This document shows positions 4,585 to 46,947 of a stretch of DNA of 64,000 nucleotides, piece by piece; the stretch's first letter is position 1; the number at the start of each line of letters is the position of its first letter. Under the pieces are notes generated by a model. The model made no database searches and was not told where the DNA came from. It saw only the letters and a list, made by a program, of their open reading frames with translations. The translations under genes and the position numbers were made by a program. Where the stretch lies: NCBI RefSeq assembly GCF_030028105.1, contig NC_092381.1, forward strand, positions 34,761,550 through 34,825,549. The letters run 5' to 3'. Source of the DNA: Mobula birostris. Its lineage: Eukaryota.

Positions 4585-4774
4585 CTGAAAGAAATAAAAC
4601 AAAACAAATATCTCAAATTTAATTTGTATGAATATTCATCGATATTACTTTCAACAGCCTAAAAATCCCATGAACCTCTCTATTTCCTCAGGGGGTTAAA
4701 GAAATTTGAAATGTCTCCATTGACCCTTAACAATTTTCATCGATGTACCCTAAAAGCATCCTATCTGGATGTCA

Positions 4775-4985
4775 AACAACAGGAATTCTGCAGATGCTGG
4801 AAATTCAAGCACACACATCAAAGTTGCTGGTGAACGCAGCAGGCCAAGCAGCATCTGTAGGAAGAGGTGCAGTCAACGCTTCAGGCCAAGTCCTGACGAA
4901 GGGTCTCGGCCTGAAACGTTGACTGCACCTCTTCCTACAGATGCTGCTTGGCCTGCTGCATTCACCAGCAACTTTGATGTGTGTG
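4775..4985. mobile_element. Penelope-like pLTR-only inverted insertion with 14-bp TSD, inside an old Rex1-type remnant (about 4720-5480)
   Basis: About 80-bp inverted arms (4808-4887 / 4908-4987); CTATCTGGATGTCA at 4761-4774 and 4986-4999; same sequence as the ends of the element at 43449-46874. Confidence 0.85.
4889..4924 (+). ncRNA. Minimal type I hammerhead ribozyme motif (Penelope-associated)
   Basis: AGTC-CTGACGA-A-GGGT(CTCG)GCCT-GAAA-CGTT-GACT: complete core, stems I and II, palindromic ACGT in place of stem III, NUH triplet GUU. Confidence 0.75.
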
Positions 4986-6139
4986 CTATCTGGATGTCAG
5001 CAACTTGATATGGGAACTGCTCTGCACATGCCCACAAGAAACTGAAGACAGTTGTAGACACAGCTCAGCACATTACAGCAAACCAGCCTACCCTCTATGG
5101 ACTCTGTCGAGACTTATCACTGCATTGGTTAAGCAGCCAGCAAAATCAAAGACCCCCCCCTCCCCGCCCCATCCTTGACTTTCTCTAATCTCCCCTCTTC
5201 CAACGGACAGAAGATACAGAAGCCTGAAAGCACGTACCATCAGGTTCAAGGACAGCTTCTATCCCACTGTTATAAAGCTATTAAATAGTTCCCTGACACA
5301 ATACATTGGACTCTTAACTTCATAATTCTACTCTATTTTGGTCTTGCATCTTACTGTTTACCTGCACTGCACTTTGCTGTAGCAGTTACGCTTTATCTAA
5401 TCTGTAAGAACATTATGCAAGGCAAGTTTTTTCCGCTGTATCTCAGTACATGTGACAATAATAATAAACTAATTCCAAACCAAAACCAATACAGGCACAC
5501 ACAAATAATTTGGTTTCATTTGAGGTTAAGTCCCCTCGTGTCAGCTTTAGAACTTAAGAATGCACACATTATAAACTGCCAGCCATTCATCTGGGACTTA
5601 CACCTGACTGTTGTTAAACAGGGTGAATTATTTAATGACAGCTGAAACTAGGAAATTTGATATCATATCTGTTCCTTCCTCCCTCCCACCTTTGATTTCA
5701 TAGTCCATTGTAAAATGTTGATTCATTAGTAGTTACCTTAATGCAGAATTTTTCATTATTTTTACATTGCAATCAACTTCTAGAATAAATATTGTTCATT
5801 TGTAAATGCAACTTTGTTCTTATTTATAGGCTAATCATAAGGCGGACTAACAGCTGGCATAGATTATGAGATAGCGCAGAAAAAGTTGATAGGAACAGCA
5901 CTAACAAGTGCATCTAAAAATGCGCTCTTCTTACATAATTCATTTAACATGAATTCAAACTTCTTTGTCCAACTTTTGGCTTGATAATGGCACCATACAA
6001 TCAGTTAGAATTAAAATTAGCTTCTCTTTTCTTATATGTGGTTCAATAGGTTGGTCACTTTGCCCAGAGGAATGAGTCCCCTCACATTATGGATCTATTG
6101 ATGTGTTATAATGTACAGATACTGTTCCATCAGGCGATA

Positions 6140-13664: not shown

Positions 13665-13795
13665 CTGACGAAGGGTCTCGGCCTGAAATGTCGACTGTAC
13701 CTCTTCCTAGAGATGCTGCCTGGCCTGCTGCGCTCACCAGCAACTTTGATGTGTGTTGCTTGAATTTCCAGCATCTGCAGAATTCCTGTTGTTTG
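13665..13795 (+). mobile_element. Isolated Penelope-like pLTR with hammerhead core (GUC triplet, 5' strand of stem I missing)
   Basis: CTGACGA-A-GGGTCTCGGCCT-GAAA-TGTC-GACTG then the same tail as 4775-4985 and 46747-46874. Confidence 0.8.
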
Positions 13796-29311: not shown

Positions 29312-31563
29312 CTTTCTTTGTAGAAGCAGTCAGGTTTGGAAAATGCTGTCAGAATCGCCAATGTGAGATACTGCAGTGTATTTTGTAGACAGTGTACACT
29401 ACATCCACTATGTTCCAATCAAAGCTTGAGTTTTTAATGGGATACCAATCAAGTGGGCTGTTTTGTCTTGAATGGTGCTGAATTTATTAAGTTCTGTGGA
29501 ACTGTACTTATCCAGACAAGGGGAAGGTGTCAGAATCAAAATGATGAAGAGTCTTTGACCTAAAATGGTAATTCTGTTCCTCTTTCCACAATGCTGCCTG
29601 ACCTGCTGAATGTTTCTAGTATTTTCTGTTTGTATTTGAGAGGATGTACTGTTTAAATGACAAAAAAGTACTTTCAAAAGTATATGCTGGAAGAAATCAG
29701 ACTTCTGGAAATTACCAAACCTGCACAAAGTCTAAATGGTGAAATAAAAAACAAGTTTCTGCTCACCTTGGACATGTTGGTGTCCAACATGAGTACTTAA
29801 GACTGAACAGAAACCTGACCAAAGGAATTTTTTTGAAAACAACTGTGACCACTATGGCAAGACCTGCAAGTCTGACATTGGTGTCTAAAGCCTCATATTC
29901 ATTGCCATTTGATCAGAATAGCTTCAATATCTACTGTAACTTGGTAATCACTGGATGCTTAAGGTAATTATCTGATGCACTTTGATATAAAGCTTTGCCT
30001 TACTACTAACTCCTGTGGAAACAATTATTCTATATAAATCAGATTTAAACAGAAATGGATATAAAGAAATGGAATTTAAATGCAGACATTAAGAAAATTG
30101 CCCTTGTATATACTTGTTCACTTGATGTTAATAATGAGGTTCTTTTTATTGAAAATTATTTGTTGCCTTTTTACTAGTTCTGACAAAGGATCAGTGATCT
30201 CTTTCCATAGATGCTGCCTGACAGTCTTTTTTTCTCTAGCATCTTTTCTTGGTTTAGTTGCACATTTTCAGCATCTGCATTTTGTTTTAATTTTTATTCA
30301 AATAAGTTTACCAGATTAGAGGAAACCATTCACAAGTTAACCACAACTATAATGTAAAATCCCCTCCCTTTCAGTAGAACATTCAACAACTGCTTCTCAG
30401 AGGGGGAAAAAAACAACTCTGTTTGAAAACAGCATATCTGTTCTTTAATCTCAAAGGTCCAGGAATATGCTTCTTTTCCCCAAATCTGGATCTAGCTGCC
30501 ACACCATCACAATTACATGTTATACTCCTGCCACAGCAGTAAATCAATCATATAACATTTTAACTGTATTGAGGTATCACCTTTGACTTACTTAGAGTTC
30601 CTTATGGCCCAGCAAAGTTTCATTTGCCTGCAATTTGTGGTCCTCCATATCTGGCCGAAATTTCTAATCATTAACATATCTTCCTGTCTGGAATTCCCTC
30701 CAGTCTCCAGCACCCCCTCAAGTGCGTAGCCCTATAATTTACATTTTAATTATTACTAAGAGCCCCTGAGTTCTCATGTAATTTGTTCTTATCGTCTTTT
30801 GTTGATTCCAGGCCAAAATACTTCTCATGCACTTGTAACTGATTTTAAAATGGGGAGGGGGGAAATCTGTCTTTTGTGTGGGGGGGGAAAAAGCCCAGGT
30901 CAGCTCACTGCATTGCATGTGCAACCAAGCCGACATATCAAACCAGCTAACTCAGTGTTTCCCATTATTACTATGTTAATAGTAGCAGGGCAGGTTGGGC
31001 CATGGGTAAGCTTTTGAAATGGGGAAGAAATGATTCAGGAATCTACCAGAATTCATTCAATATTGGTTATTGTGTGTTTTAAGGCCAGCAGAAAGAGGGG
31101 TTTGTGCTGGCTCTGTTGCAAAGACTATCCTTTCTCCAAACTAAATGAGTTTGCATCTGCTGACTTGATTGCACACCATATTAAAATGGCTACACTCTGT
31201 TTAGAATTCAACTCGAGGAATGTGGTGCCTTGATGTGGTTATTTCCCATCTAGAAATAACTACCCCACAACCAGTTTAATATTGACATCAAAACAAACCC
31301 ATGGTGCTAAGCTAAATTAGTTTTTGGTTGTTATTGCAAAGCTGTCCTAGTTGACATGCATAATTGAATTTTTGTTAGTTCATTAGTATTGAAGGTGGAG
31401 GGTATTTGTGCTTTATGGGTGTAATGTATTCTGTTTGCATTTGCAATAGATTTTTACTTTTTTTCTCTTTAGAGGAGGGAATGGGGACTCCCCTTCCTCT
31501 ATAAGCAATAGTTTATTTTGTAAAATTCTCCTCAACATCAGTATCATTGTTTTTGTTTTGCAG

Positions 31564-40403: not shown

Positions 40404-40569
40404 CTATAGGGCATTAAAAAGGCAATTAAAACAAAGCAAAGTATGGAAATGCATAATTACATCATTTATCAGGAAGTATATCAAAAGATCAGATACTTAA
40501 GACATGTACAATGTGAAACTTGCATTTAATTTTAAACATATTGCCTATTCATTTTTCCAAGTTTCCTAC

Positions 40570-40656
40570 CTGGATGGCTTTCAGTAAAGCCTCTGCTTGC
40601 ACTCGTTCCTTTTTCCCCTTCAACTTTGCCTTCCTTAGATTACGCTCTTCAACACG
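40570..40656 (-). CDS. TTC4: TTC4 exon 6
   Basis: RVEERNLRKAKLKGKKERVQAEALLKAIQ; TAG / GTAGG. Confidence 0.92.
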
Positions 40657-43130: not shown

Positions 43131-43509
43131 AAACAAACTGTGGAATAAAACACTGCTACACAAGTAATTACCAGTCAATATTTCAGGGCACTACAGATTT
43201 TTGGAGCTGTACTGTGCCATTGTGGAATTTGTGTTCACTCTTCTGGTTCACCACTTATGGAGTTCTCAATAATATTCCTGTTTTTACTAGAGTGGAAAAA
43301 GAAACTGTAAAAATGCTTCCAAGCAGTCATTGTGGACTTAAAGACTAAAGGGAAGGGACAAAAAGAACACAAAACCTGTTTTCGAAGCTTTTGCAGCTCC
43401 TAGCAGATAACCAAGACAATACTAGTAAAAAAAAACTAGGTTATAGGCGACACACATCAAAGTTGCTGGTGAACGCAGCAGGTCAGGCAGCATCTCTAGG
43501 AAGAGGTGC

Positions 43510-43545
43510 AGTCCACGTTTCAGGCCGAGACCCTTCGTCAGGACT
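43510..43545 (-). ncRNA. Minimal hammerhead ribozyme motif, GUG triplet (predicted inactive)
   Basis: Minus strand AGTC-CTGACGA-A-GGGTCTCGGCCT-GAAA-CGTG-GACT. Confidence 0.65.
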
Positions 43546-46500
43546 AACTGAAGGAAGAGTGAGTAAGAGATATAAAACTGGGAGGGGGAGGGGGAGATCC
43601 AAAATGATGGGAGGAGAGGGAGGGATGGAGCCAGGAGCTGGACAGGTGATTGGCAAAAGGGATATGAGAGGATCATGGGACAGGAGGTCCGGGGAGAAAG
43701 AAAAGGGGGGGGGGGACCCAGAGGATGGGCAAGGGGTATAGTGAGAGGGACAGAGGGAGAAAAAGGAGTGAGAGAAAGAATGTGTGTATATAAATAACAG
43801 ATGGGGTACCAGGGGGAGGTGGGTCATTAGCAGAAGTCAGATAAGTCAATGTTCATGCCATCAGGTTGGAGGCTACCCAGATGGAATATAAGGTGTTGTT
43901 CCTCCAACCTGAGTGTGGCTTCATCTTTACAGGCCGTGGATAGACCTATCAGAATGGGAACGGGGTGTGGAATTAAAATATGTGGCCACTGGGAGATCCT
44001 GCTTTCTCTGGCGGACAGAGCGTAGGTGTTCAGCAAAACGATCTCCCAGTATGCGTCGGATCTCGCCAGTATATAGAAGGCCACATCGGGAGCACTGGAC
44101 ACAGTATATCATCCCAGCCGACTCACAGGCGAAGTGTCGCCTCATCTGGAAGGACTGTCTGGGGCCCTGAATGGTGGTAAGGGAGGAAGTGTAAGGGAAT
44201 GTGTAGCACTTGTTCTGCTTACAAGGATAAGTGCCAAGAGGGAGATCAGTGGGGAGGGATGGGGGGGACGAATGGACAAAGGAGTCGCGTATGGAGCCAT
44301 CCTTGCAGAAAGCGGGTGGGGGGGGGAGGGAAAGATGTGCTTAGTGGTGGGATCCTGTTGGAGGTGGCGGAAGTTACGGAGAATAATATGTTGGACCCGG
44401 AGGCTGGTGAGGTGGTAGGTGAGGACCAGGGGAACCCTATTCCTAGTGGGGTGGCGGGAGGATGGAGTGAGAGCAGATGTGCATGAAATGGGGGAGATGC
44501 GTTTGAGAGCAGAGTTGATAGTGGAGGAAGGGAAGCCCCTTTCTTTAAAAAAAGGACATCTCCCTCGTCCTGGAATGAAAAGCCTCATCCTGAGCGCAGA
44601 TGCGGCGGAGACGGAGGAATTGCAAGAAGGGGATGGCATTTTCGCAAGAGACAGGGTGAGAAGAGGAATAGTCCAGATAGCTGTGAGCGTCAGTAGGCTT
44701 ATAACAGACATAACTAGATAAGCTGTCTCCAGAGATAGAGACAGAAAGATCTAGAAGGGGGAGGGAGGTGTCGGAAATGGACCAGGTAAACTTGAGGGCA
44801 GGGTGAAAGTTGGAGGCAAAGTTAATAAAGTCAACGAGCTCAGCATGCGTGCAGGAAGCAGTGCCAATGCAGTCATCGATGTAGTGAAGGAAAAGTGGGG
44901 GACAGATATCAGAATAGGTACGGAACATAGATTGTTCCACAAAGCCAACAAAAAGGCAGGCATAGCTCGGACCCATGTGGGTGCCCATAGCTACACCTTT
45001 AGTTTGGAGGAAGTGGGAGGAGCCAAAGGAGAAATTATTAAGAGTAAGGACTAATTCCGCTAGACAGAGCAGAGTGGTGGTAGAGGGGAACTGATTAGGT
45101 CTGGAATCCAAAAAGAAGTGGAGAGCTTTGAGACCTTCCTGATGGGGGATGGAAGTATATAGGGACTGGACATCCATGGTGAAAATAAAGCGGTGGGGGC
45201 CAGGGAACTTAAAATCATTGAGAAGTTTAAGAGCGTGAGAAGTGTCATGAACATAGGTAGGAAGGGATTGAACAAGGGGGGATAAAACCGTGTCGAGGTA
45301 TGCAGAAACGAGTTCGGTGGGGCAGGAGCAAGCTGAGACAATAGGTCTGCCAGGACAGGCAGGTTTGTGAATCTTGGGTAGGAGGTAGAAACGGGAAGTG
45401 CAAGGTGTGGGAACTATAAGGTTGGTAGCAGTGGATGGGAGACTATAAGGTTGGTAGCAGTTGACATTATTAACTTTGCCTCCAACTTTCACCCTGCCCT
45501 CAAGTTTACCTGGTCCATTTCCGACACCTCCCTCCCCTTTCTAGATCTTTCTGTCTCTATCTCTGGAGACAGCTTATCTACTGATATCTACTATAAGCCT
45601 ACTGACTCTCACAGCTATCTGGACTAATCCTCTTCTCACCCTGTCTCTTGCAAAAATGCCATACCCTTCTCGCAATTCCTCCGTCTCCGCCGCATCTGCT
45701 CTCAGGATGAGGCTTTTCATTCCAGGACGAGGGAGATGTCCTCCTTTTTTAAAGAAAGGGGCTTCCCTTCCTCCACCATCAACTCTGCTCTCAAACGCAT
45801 CTCCCCCATTTCACGTACATCTGCTCTCACTCCATCCTCCCGCCACCCCACTAGGAATAGGGTTCCCCTGGTCCTCACCTACCACCCCACCAGCCTCTGG
45901 GTCCAACATATTATTCTCCGTAACTTCCGCCACCTCCAACGGGATCCCACCACCAAGCACATCTTCCTCCCCCCCCCAACTTTCTGCAAGGATCGCTCCC
46001 TACGCGACTCCCTTGTCCATTTGTCCCCCATCCCTCCCCACTGATCTCCCTCCTGGCACTTGTAAGCGGAACAAGTGCTACACATGCCCTTACACTTCCT
46101 CCCTTACCACCATTCAGGGCCCCACAGTCCTTCCAGGCGAGGCGACACTTCACCTGTGAGTCAGCTGGGGTGATATACTGCATCCTGTGCTCCCGATGTG
46201 GCCTTCTATATATTGGCAAGACCCGACGCAGACTGGGAGATCGTTTTGCTGAACACCTACGCTCTGTCCGCCAGAGAAAGCAGGATCTCCCAGTGGCCAC
46301 ACATTTTAATTCCACATCCCAATCCCATTCTGACATGTCTATCCACGGCCTCCTCTACTGTAAAGATGAAGCCACACTCAGGTTGGAGGAACAACACCTT
46401 ACATTCCGTCTGGGTAGCCTCCAACCTGATGGCATGAACATTGACTTCTCTAACTTCCGCTAATGCCCCACCTCCCCCTCATACCCCGTCCATTATTTAT

Positions 46501-46742
46501 ACATACACATTCTTTCTCTCACTCTCCTTTTTCTCCCTCTGTCCCTCTGACTATACCCCTTGCCCATCTTCTGGGTTCCCCCCACCCCTTTTCCTTCTCC
46601 CTGGGCCTCCTGTCCCATGATCCTCTCATATCCCACCTGTCGAGCTCTTGGCTCCATCCCTCCCCCTCCGGTCTTCTCCTATCATTTTGAATCTCCTCTC
46701 CCCCTCCCACTTTTAAATCTCTTACTAGCTCTTTCTTCAGTT

Positions 46743-46778
46743 AGTCCTGACGAATGGTCCCGGCCTGAAACGTGGACT
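46743..46778 (+). ncRNA. Minimal hammerhead ribozyme motif, GUG triplet and mutated stem II (predicted inactive)
   Basis: AGTC-CTGACGA-A-TGGTCCCGGCCT-GAAA-CGTG-GACT. Confidence 0.6.
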
Positions 46779-46947
46779 GTACCTCTTCCTAGAGATGCTG
46801 CCTGACCTGCTGCGTTCACCAGCAACTTTGATGTGTGTTGCTTGAATTTCCAGCATCTTGAGAATTCCTCGTGTTAGGTTATAGGCCATACTTCTCCTTG
46901 GAAGGGATGGGAAGAAAAATAAAACAAAACGATTACTACAATCCTAC

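Follow-up and report, generated by a model that had tools for sequence, protein, structure and literature searches.

The hairpin at positions 4761-4999 of the 64,000-nucleotide stretch of Mobula birostris DNA analysed here (the window) raises the question of whether a ribozyme-bearing pair of inverted Penelope arms is an extreme truncation product or a member of a non-autonomous family, which an earlier note on this DNA had offered as alternatives. Our results show that the hairpin is an ordinary inverted insertion, in its shortest form, of an abundant, apparently Neptune-like Penelope element, and hairpins of this kind are likely built anew at each landing, not spreading as a ribozyme element of their own. 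Of the two alternatives, extreme truncation stands, as a recurrent and not a random one-off event, while the family is not supported, given varied junctions, a tail on either arm and variants shared with long copies. The unit itself is an ordinary stub of a known class, and it is the population-level patterns that carry the weight; the hairpin population bears on the role of the hammerhead and on how inverted, one-tailed insertions form.

The unit lies between two perfect copies of a 14-bp target site duplication (TSD), CTATCTGGATGTCA, at 4761-4774 and 4986-4999, which enclose 211 bp; the first two nucleotides (CT) of the right copy also match the element. It interrupts a decayed, older reverse transcriptase (RT) remnant (4640-5400), which we take from its translation to be LINE-like and which has relatives elsewhere in the genome. 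Among 28 matches to the right flank, four extend to the insertion site, and since this site is single in these uninterrupted relatives of the host repeat, the 14-bp repeat is a true target duplication, as the earlier note had proposed. On the scale used below, the C of CUGA is position 0, the predicted ribozyme cut falls at +27/+28 and the tail ends near +128. The Penelope tail, a 3' extension of about 35 nt, is confined to the left arm (4775-4809, minus strand). It is followed by the left pLTR arm (4810-4890, minus strand), which by sequence comparison lacks CUGACGA and has its 5' end inside stem II at +12 (or +9 allowing one mismatch), by the inversion junction (4889-4893), where AG is common to both arms (AG-n-CC, 4/5), and by the tail-less right pLTR arm (4889-4985, plus strand), which runs from -4 to about +93. 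The inverted arms, first put at roughly 80 bp, are 86 nt each (4808-4893 and 4902-4987) and 95% complementary, and the unit folds at -167.9 kcal/mol (z -20), with none of 200 shuffles equally good. Both arms read GATGTGTGTGCT, apparently sharing a 1-nt deletion seen in none of 162 other tailed arms, the support from the right arm being one base.

A minimal type I hammerhead motif spans 4889-4924 on the plus strand. Its stem I is AGUC/GACU (4889-4892/4921-4924), and the core CUGACGA (4893-4899) is followed by a bulged A, stem II GGGU/GCCU and GAA, with the palindrome ACGU at 4916-4919 and the predicted cut after 4920. It carries the features of minimal PLE hammerheads, namely CUGANGA, GAAA, NUH, a helix I of 4-5 bp, the bulge and palindromic positions 15.2-16.2, and this palindrome would suit the dimer type that had been suggested for it. 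The complete motif and its predicted cut site are therefore as first described, with one correction: the cut triplet is GUU, whereas 158 of 173 young copies have GUC. The closing pair of helix II is G-U in 136 of 173 young-family copies. An Rfam scan of the window gave no hammerhead match with E≤1, and shuffled versions of the monomer motif are just as stable (z 0.22). A plus transcript makes the antisense arm first, and because this arm pairs with the motif the hammerhead would be sequestered; forcing its fold inside the hairpin costs a predicted +32.4 kcal/mol. The motif is thus predicted to be buried in the arm duplex and is not expected to fold within the unit; any activity of the unit would be that of a long double-stranded hairpin. 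The window copy is a single, likely dead insertion.

Besides the hairpin, the window contains three young arms of the family. One is a solo tailed stub (13665-13795, plus strand) that starts at CUGA; the other two, at 43450 and 46875, belong to a long head-to-head copy of the parent element (43437-46886; 3.4 kb) with decayed RT and GIY-YIG frames. This copy is flanked by a 12-bp TSD, TAGGTTATAGGC, at 43437-43448 and 46875-46886, and consists of a minus arm without tail and a tailed plus arm, the same plan as in the hairpin. Its junction near 45460 occurs once genome-wide and has no near sibling. A fragment of an older pLTR subfamily, 75% identical, lies at 29542-29608. The parent RT matches Pfam RVT_1 at E 3.5e-5, under the curated cut-off, and the GIY-YIG match C-terminal to it, at E 1e-5, is above its curated cut-off. 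Parent translations contain the CX4CXXC linker CKRNKCYTC and a nuclease CCHH motif, YCVRCSRCGLLYIG...EH...THF; a CX2-5CXXC linker and a CCHH nuclease motif are given as defining traits of the Neptune/Nematis type (PMC8557442). The parent is accordingly classed, from its translated sequence, as an EN+ Penelope-like element, putatively Neptune- or Nematis-like, the clade label depending on the linker motif. The hallmarks of EN+ PLEs are present, namely partial tandems forming pLTRs, an inverted copy, a one-sided tail and a TSD, and together with the RT and GIY-YIG parent and its linker they bear out the Penelope origin first proposed. An upstream pLTR was found at 13 of 29 loci picked for an ORF start, with the tail running straight into the next ORF. 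A 23-nt pLTR motif has 80,491 exact matches in the 4.0-Gb genome, and a 33-nt hammerhead has 23,789.

Inverted copies with a one-sided tail and a TSD have been described for PLEs (PMC3846280, PMC8557442, PMC2377424). The EN+ insertions with inverted pLTRs in these accounts resemble the hairpin in having a 5'-truncated copy with an adjacent inverted one, a 30-40-bp tail at one end, a TSD and a palindromic junction; here, in contrast, both arms are cut to about 100-120 bp, copies number in the thousands and 5' ends are concentrated at one site. With the metazoan PLE hammerheads described in PMC4209133 the motif shares the short helix I, the bulged base before helix II and the palindromic dimer positions, and it differs from them in the G-U closing pair of helix II in the young family and in the buried GUU triplet of the window copy. 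The same source already noted hammerhead pairs on opposite strands, spaced 100-700 bp, and solitary motifs derived from truncated PLEs.

The sampled head-to-head pairs have one tail each: 55 of 57 carry it on exactly one arm, at every size. A TSD of at least 9 bp together with both arms was found at 42 of 69 loci, 14 bp being the commonest length (15/42), and of 56 pairs scored, 48 had a longest shared match of 9-17 bp at their ends. Of 27 tail-less ends, 25 lie at +90 to +96 and 17 overlap the target by at least 2 nt; the same overlap was seen for 7 of 30 tail ends. In 55 pairs compared for their 5' reach, the tailed arm was longer in 24, the tail-less arm in 29, and two were equal. One tail per pair, with either arm reaching further 5', argues for two RNA-templated syntheses and not for one fold-back. 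A fold-back from the tailed arm was rejected, as the tail-less arm reaches further 5' in the window copy and in those 29 pairs.

We conclude that the hairpin probably arose when the enzyme of the element reverse-transcribed a short RNA at both strands of a single staggered cut, the two short copies then being joined head to head. The GIY-YIG nuclease would nick the strands about 14 bp apart; priming would take place at the tail end (+128) from one nick and internally, near +93, from the other, aided by 1-5 nt of microhomology. Both cDNAs would then run off a template with an uncut ribozyme and a 5' end just before stem I (about -4 to -8), and their ends would be trimmed and joined via the AG microhomology. 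Short arms tend to occur together (20 of 27 tailed short arms have a short partner, p 4e-5), which, together with the private 1-nt deletion apparently shared by the two arms of the window copy, points to one short template; pairing between cDNAs via the self-complementary hammerhead stems could also shorten both arms. Against this explanation stands the tail polarity of 39:11 at the window junction, which is unexplained. In L1 twin priming the second target strand likewise primes a second cDNA, and the two pieces are not known to overlap, whereas both arms here copy the same stretch. For the Poseidon element of the anole, assayed in vitro, both strands were reported to be cut and extended from two start sites bounding the tail, with uncut RNA as the main template and ribozyme cleavage dispensable (PMC11167929). 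Priming occurred there without homology, unlike the short microhomology at genomic ends in this genome, and the Poseidon ORF starts in stem II, whereas the first long ORF of the parent element starts about 40 nt past the tail.

The 5' ends of arms were mapped by BLAST against two natural long arms, and 218 of 285 arms were kept as young (≥86% identity); this sample comes mostly from the first 11 Mb of one contig. A census took in every arm with an exact match to the 23-mer in the first 4.5 Mb of contig C1, 100 in total. In the census, 5' ends run continuously past -1,900, and 21 of 100 fall at 0 to -15, a rate ratio of 10.6 against background; among 60 further arms 20 end there (ratio 13.8). 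This interval was picked after viewing the data and its p-values are accordingly post hoc. The modal ends are -4 (13 arms) and -7 (9 arms). Among the 23,789 exact hammerheads, 19,720 retain four upstream bases and 13,498 retain 16, while 54 of 68 sampled arms reaching -16 retain the 16 bases exactly, the share expected under point mutation alone. From these two proportions it follows that about 29% of copies stop in the 16 bases before the hammerhead, compared with about 3% at background, which provides an independent genome-wide check. Within 6 nt of the predicted cut site, no significant enrichment was observed (3 of 100 census arms, ratio 1.3, p 0.40; 8 of 218 young arms, ratio 1.6, p 0.13). 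Unpaired arms show the same edge (19 of 104 end there), and in older subfamilies, whose upstream sequence differs, 24 of 50 core-bearing arms stop near it, in a rough test in which 37 of 87 arms had no scorable core. Truncation is thus non-random, with 5' ends concentrated about tenfold in the 16 bases before the hammerhead core and not at the cut site. The suggestion that arms begin at the 5' boundary of the ribozyme, made for two copies, holds genome-wide as a hot spot; of the two, the right arm of the hairpin starts 4 nt before CUGA, whereas in the copy at 13665 the C of CUGA is the first base, the 5' strand of stem I being absent. A concentration of 5' ends at one PLE site was not found described in our literature search, and supplements could hold truncation maps.

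The pile-up likely arises as many template RNAs begin there. The profile, with a sharp drop upstream and a shoulder downstream, would fit run-off from an RNA end followed by trimming. As to what sets this end, our first, tentative choice is transcription start at the initiator-like YCAGT and our second, also tentative, is 5' decay halted at a protein-bound hammerhead; a block to the enzyme appears unlikely as the cause, and a splice-acceptor-like signal more doubtful still. The edge sequence can be read as an initiator (YCAGT) or as a branch point, pyrimidine tract and AG. In the window (46720-46746) and in most long arms, a branch-point-like TACTAAC/TACTCAC and a pyrimidine tract are followed by CAG or TAG directly before stem I, and older subfamilies retain the pyrimidines and CAG. 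In D. virilis an intron is reported to end at helix I (PMC4209133), and in R2 templates a 5' ribozyme fold is reported to possibly limit 5' decay (PMC11331408). In the 40-nt flanks of hot-spot arms, inspected by eye, neither a spliced copy nor a common upstream exon was found. A cap-derived extra G was seen in one of about 13 unpaired hot-spot copies with clear duplication. A lariat stop at the branch-point-like A (-19) was rejected, as the four ends at -19 to -22 among 218 arms are too few. In contigs of four runs guessed to be RNA, the hammerhead edge coincided with neither a start nor an end nor a GT-AG joint in the 15 joints shown, out of 151. The idea of one fixed start conflicts with the partial tandems, 9 of 13 of which continue through a second hot spot; only part of the RNA can therefore begin there.

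If the hairpin is otherwise made as described, the pile-up might instead reflect an enzyme block, or pairing between cDNAs, at the hammerhead on a long RNA. In tandems, 4 of 13 copies end at the second pLTR (+14 to -16), a similar share, as a block acting on each pass predicts, and microhomologies in the stems are used at many junctions. However, the fold should stall copying at its 3' foot (+28 to +33) and not past it, the same edge appears in unpaired copies, and the sharp upstream drop with its downstream shoulder speaks against a block, which leaves this account rather improbable. Under the preferred reading of run-off from short RNAs, the tens of thousands of young copies amount to a testable map, with template ends immediately upstream of stem I, priming sites at +90 to +96 and near +128, and nicks staggered by 14 bp.

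Not every hairpin is independent. Among 19 sampled long hairpins, seven share their junction with another insertion 0.16-0.64 Mb away, while the TSDs differ and the tails are swapped once. Such pairs are L128:3039/L060:1210, L169:3017/L175:2990, L058/L140, L170/L176 and L118/L124. For two shared junctions (a long one and a short one with a 6-nt insert), a genome-wide count gave exactly two occurrences each in 4 Gb. L118:2966-5726 has its own TSD, yet its arms combine features of two neighbours: the 5' junction of L055 (91 kb distant) with roughly 70 nt of its flank, and the inversion junction of L124 (373 kb distant). Sibling insertions are about 3-6% divergent, as are the arms within one locus, and variant patterns are mixed, which shows that they are not assembly duplicates. 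Since neighbours with different TSDs share junctions, centres were copied between neighbouring insertions; this may have happened during insertion or afterwards, through gene conversion of a broken palindrome, either of which fits. A two-step reading, in which synthesis as above is followed by fresh cDNA ends often finishing by copying a genomic neighbour within about 1 Mb, is possible, its two steps taken jointly being on the doubtful side. If true, its second step would mean that a new insertion with its own TSD inherits the junction or flank of a neighbour, a hybrid of retrotransposition and local DNA-templated repair. For R2, the 'snap-back' and 'extra template' junctions described in PMC11331408 are alike in that a cDNA end can continue on nearby DNA. 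Neighbour-shared junctions in PLEs were not found described in our literature search, with subscription papers and supplements mostly outside its scope.

Junction sharing being common among long hairpins, the centre of the window hairpin might itself have been copied from a neighbour, or a longer palindrome might have been shortened by a later central deletion. Yet no near sibling of the window hairpin was found, the nearest matches to its junction and haplotype lying 26 and 29 Mb away on the contig. A neighbour with other variants would be missed in this comparison, and we consider this origin very unlikely. Mild clustering is seen in the first 100 of the 182 places with this junction: 13 of 90 gaps measure ≤1.3 Mb, compared with 6.6 expected (p 0.011, with the threshold set post hoc).

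These 182 genome-wide matches to a 25-nt pattern of the window junction, together with the copying of junctions in some cases, would be expected if the hairpin belonged to a non-autonomous family whose copies stem from a single master hairpin locus or a few such loci. A unique junction had been considered in the earlier note; the junction is not unique, and it occurs in several haplotypes and with the tail on either arm. A tight pattern search gave at least 4,996 short hairpins genome-wide, with varied centres among the 50 listed, and the same-junction copies represent a few percent of these, a rough share as the two patterns differ. Among the 29 best other matches to the unit, ten share its junction and 19 do not, and the flanks show different target duplications. 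Thirty same-junction places and the window copy, among them older subfamilies, divide into 16 with a left tail, nine with a right tail, five without a tail and one tailed on both arms. Of 54 copies that combine this junction with one shared variant, 50 were scored for tail position: 39 have the tail on the left, as a master would predict, and 11 on the right, as a master would not. Seen by reach, this same skew at the -4/+9 junction (L265-L304 and related loci) places the tail, in those 39 of 50, on the arm with the shorter reach.

Six-site haplotypes mostly agree between the two arms of a copy and differ between copies (13 CGCGGT, 12 CCCGGG, others), and variant frequencies are alike in 76 short and 103 long arms at 10 testable variable sites (p≥0.115). 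Varied junctions and shared variant frequencies indicate that hairpins derive from the same sources as long copies, and the window junction recurs because AG-n-CC is common to both ends. We found no fixed internal structure and no diagnostic variants of their own inherited from a master, as a SINE- or MITE-like family would have, and the two shared junctions counted genome-wide have two copies each, not many. Copying from master loci is thus largely refuted and retains a very small probability, below that of a copied centre. Given the sharing between neighbours, a repeated internal seam alone is no proof of a master element. An arm asymmetry at +67, considered as a master signature, is absent from the unselected sample and was put down to query bias of the best matches.

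That self-cleavage of the hammerhead, giving a retrozyme-like monomer or circle, sets the ends of the unit is the least credible account and hardly tenable: young and old subfamilies alike retain the motif, their stem changes being one-sided (C-G to U-G, G-C to G-U), and read-through into tandem copies fits multimeric or circular RNA, yet ends cluster about 32 nt upstream of the cut, sampled arms bear no significant trace of cleavage within 6 nt of it, the unit is inverted and not tandem with its motif buried in duplex, and the nearest second motif on the same strand is at 13665. The hairpin resembles non-LTR retrozymes (bioRxiv 10.64898/2026.07.22.740005) in being non-coding, pLTR-derived and equipped with a type I hammerhead; those are described as tandem repeats with a motif per unit, whereas the hairpin is a single inverted pair with one motif and falls outside the class as described there.

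A weak histone stem-loop match at 40551-40596 of the window (E 0.21, under the gathering score) is likely due to chance. L295 and L296, 4.7 Mb apart on one contig, share an identical insertion and duplication and represent a segmental duplicate, while L204 and L226 show short tandem stutters of the hammerhead region within single insertions.
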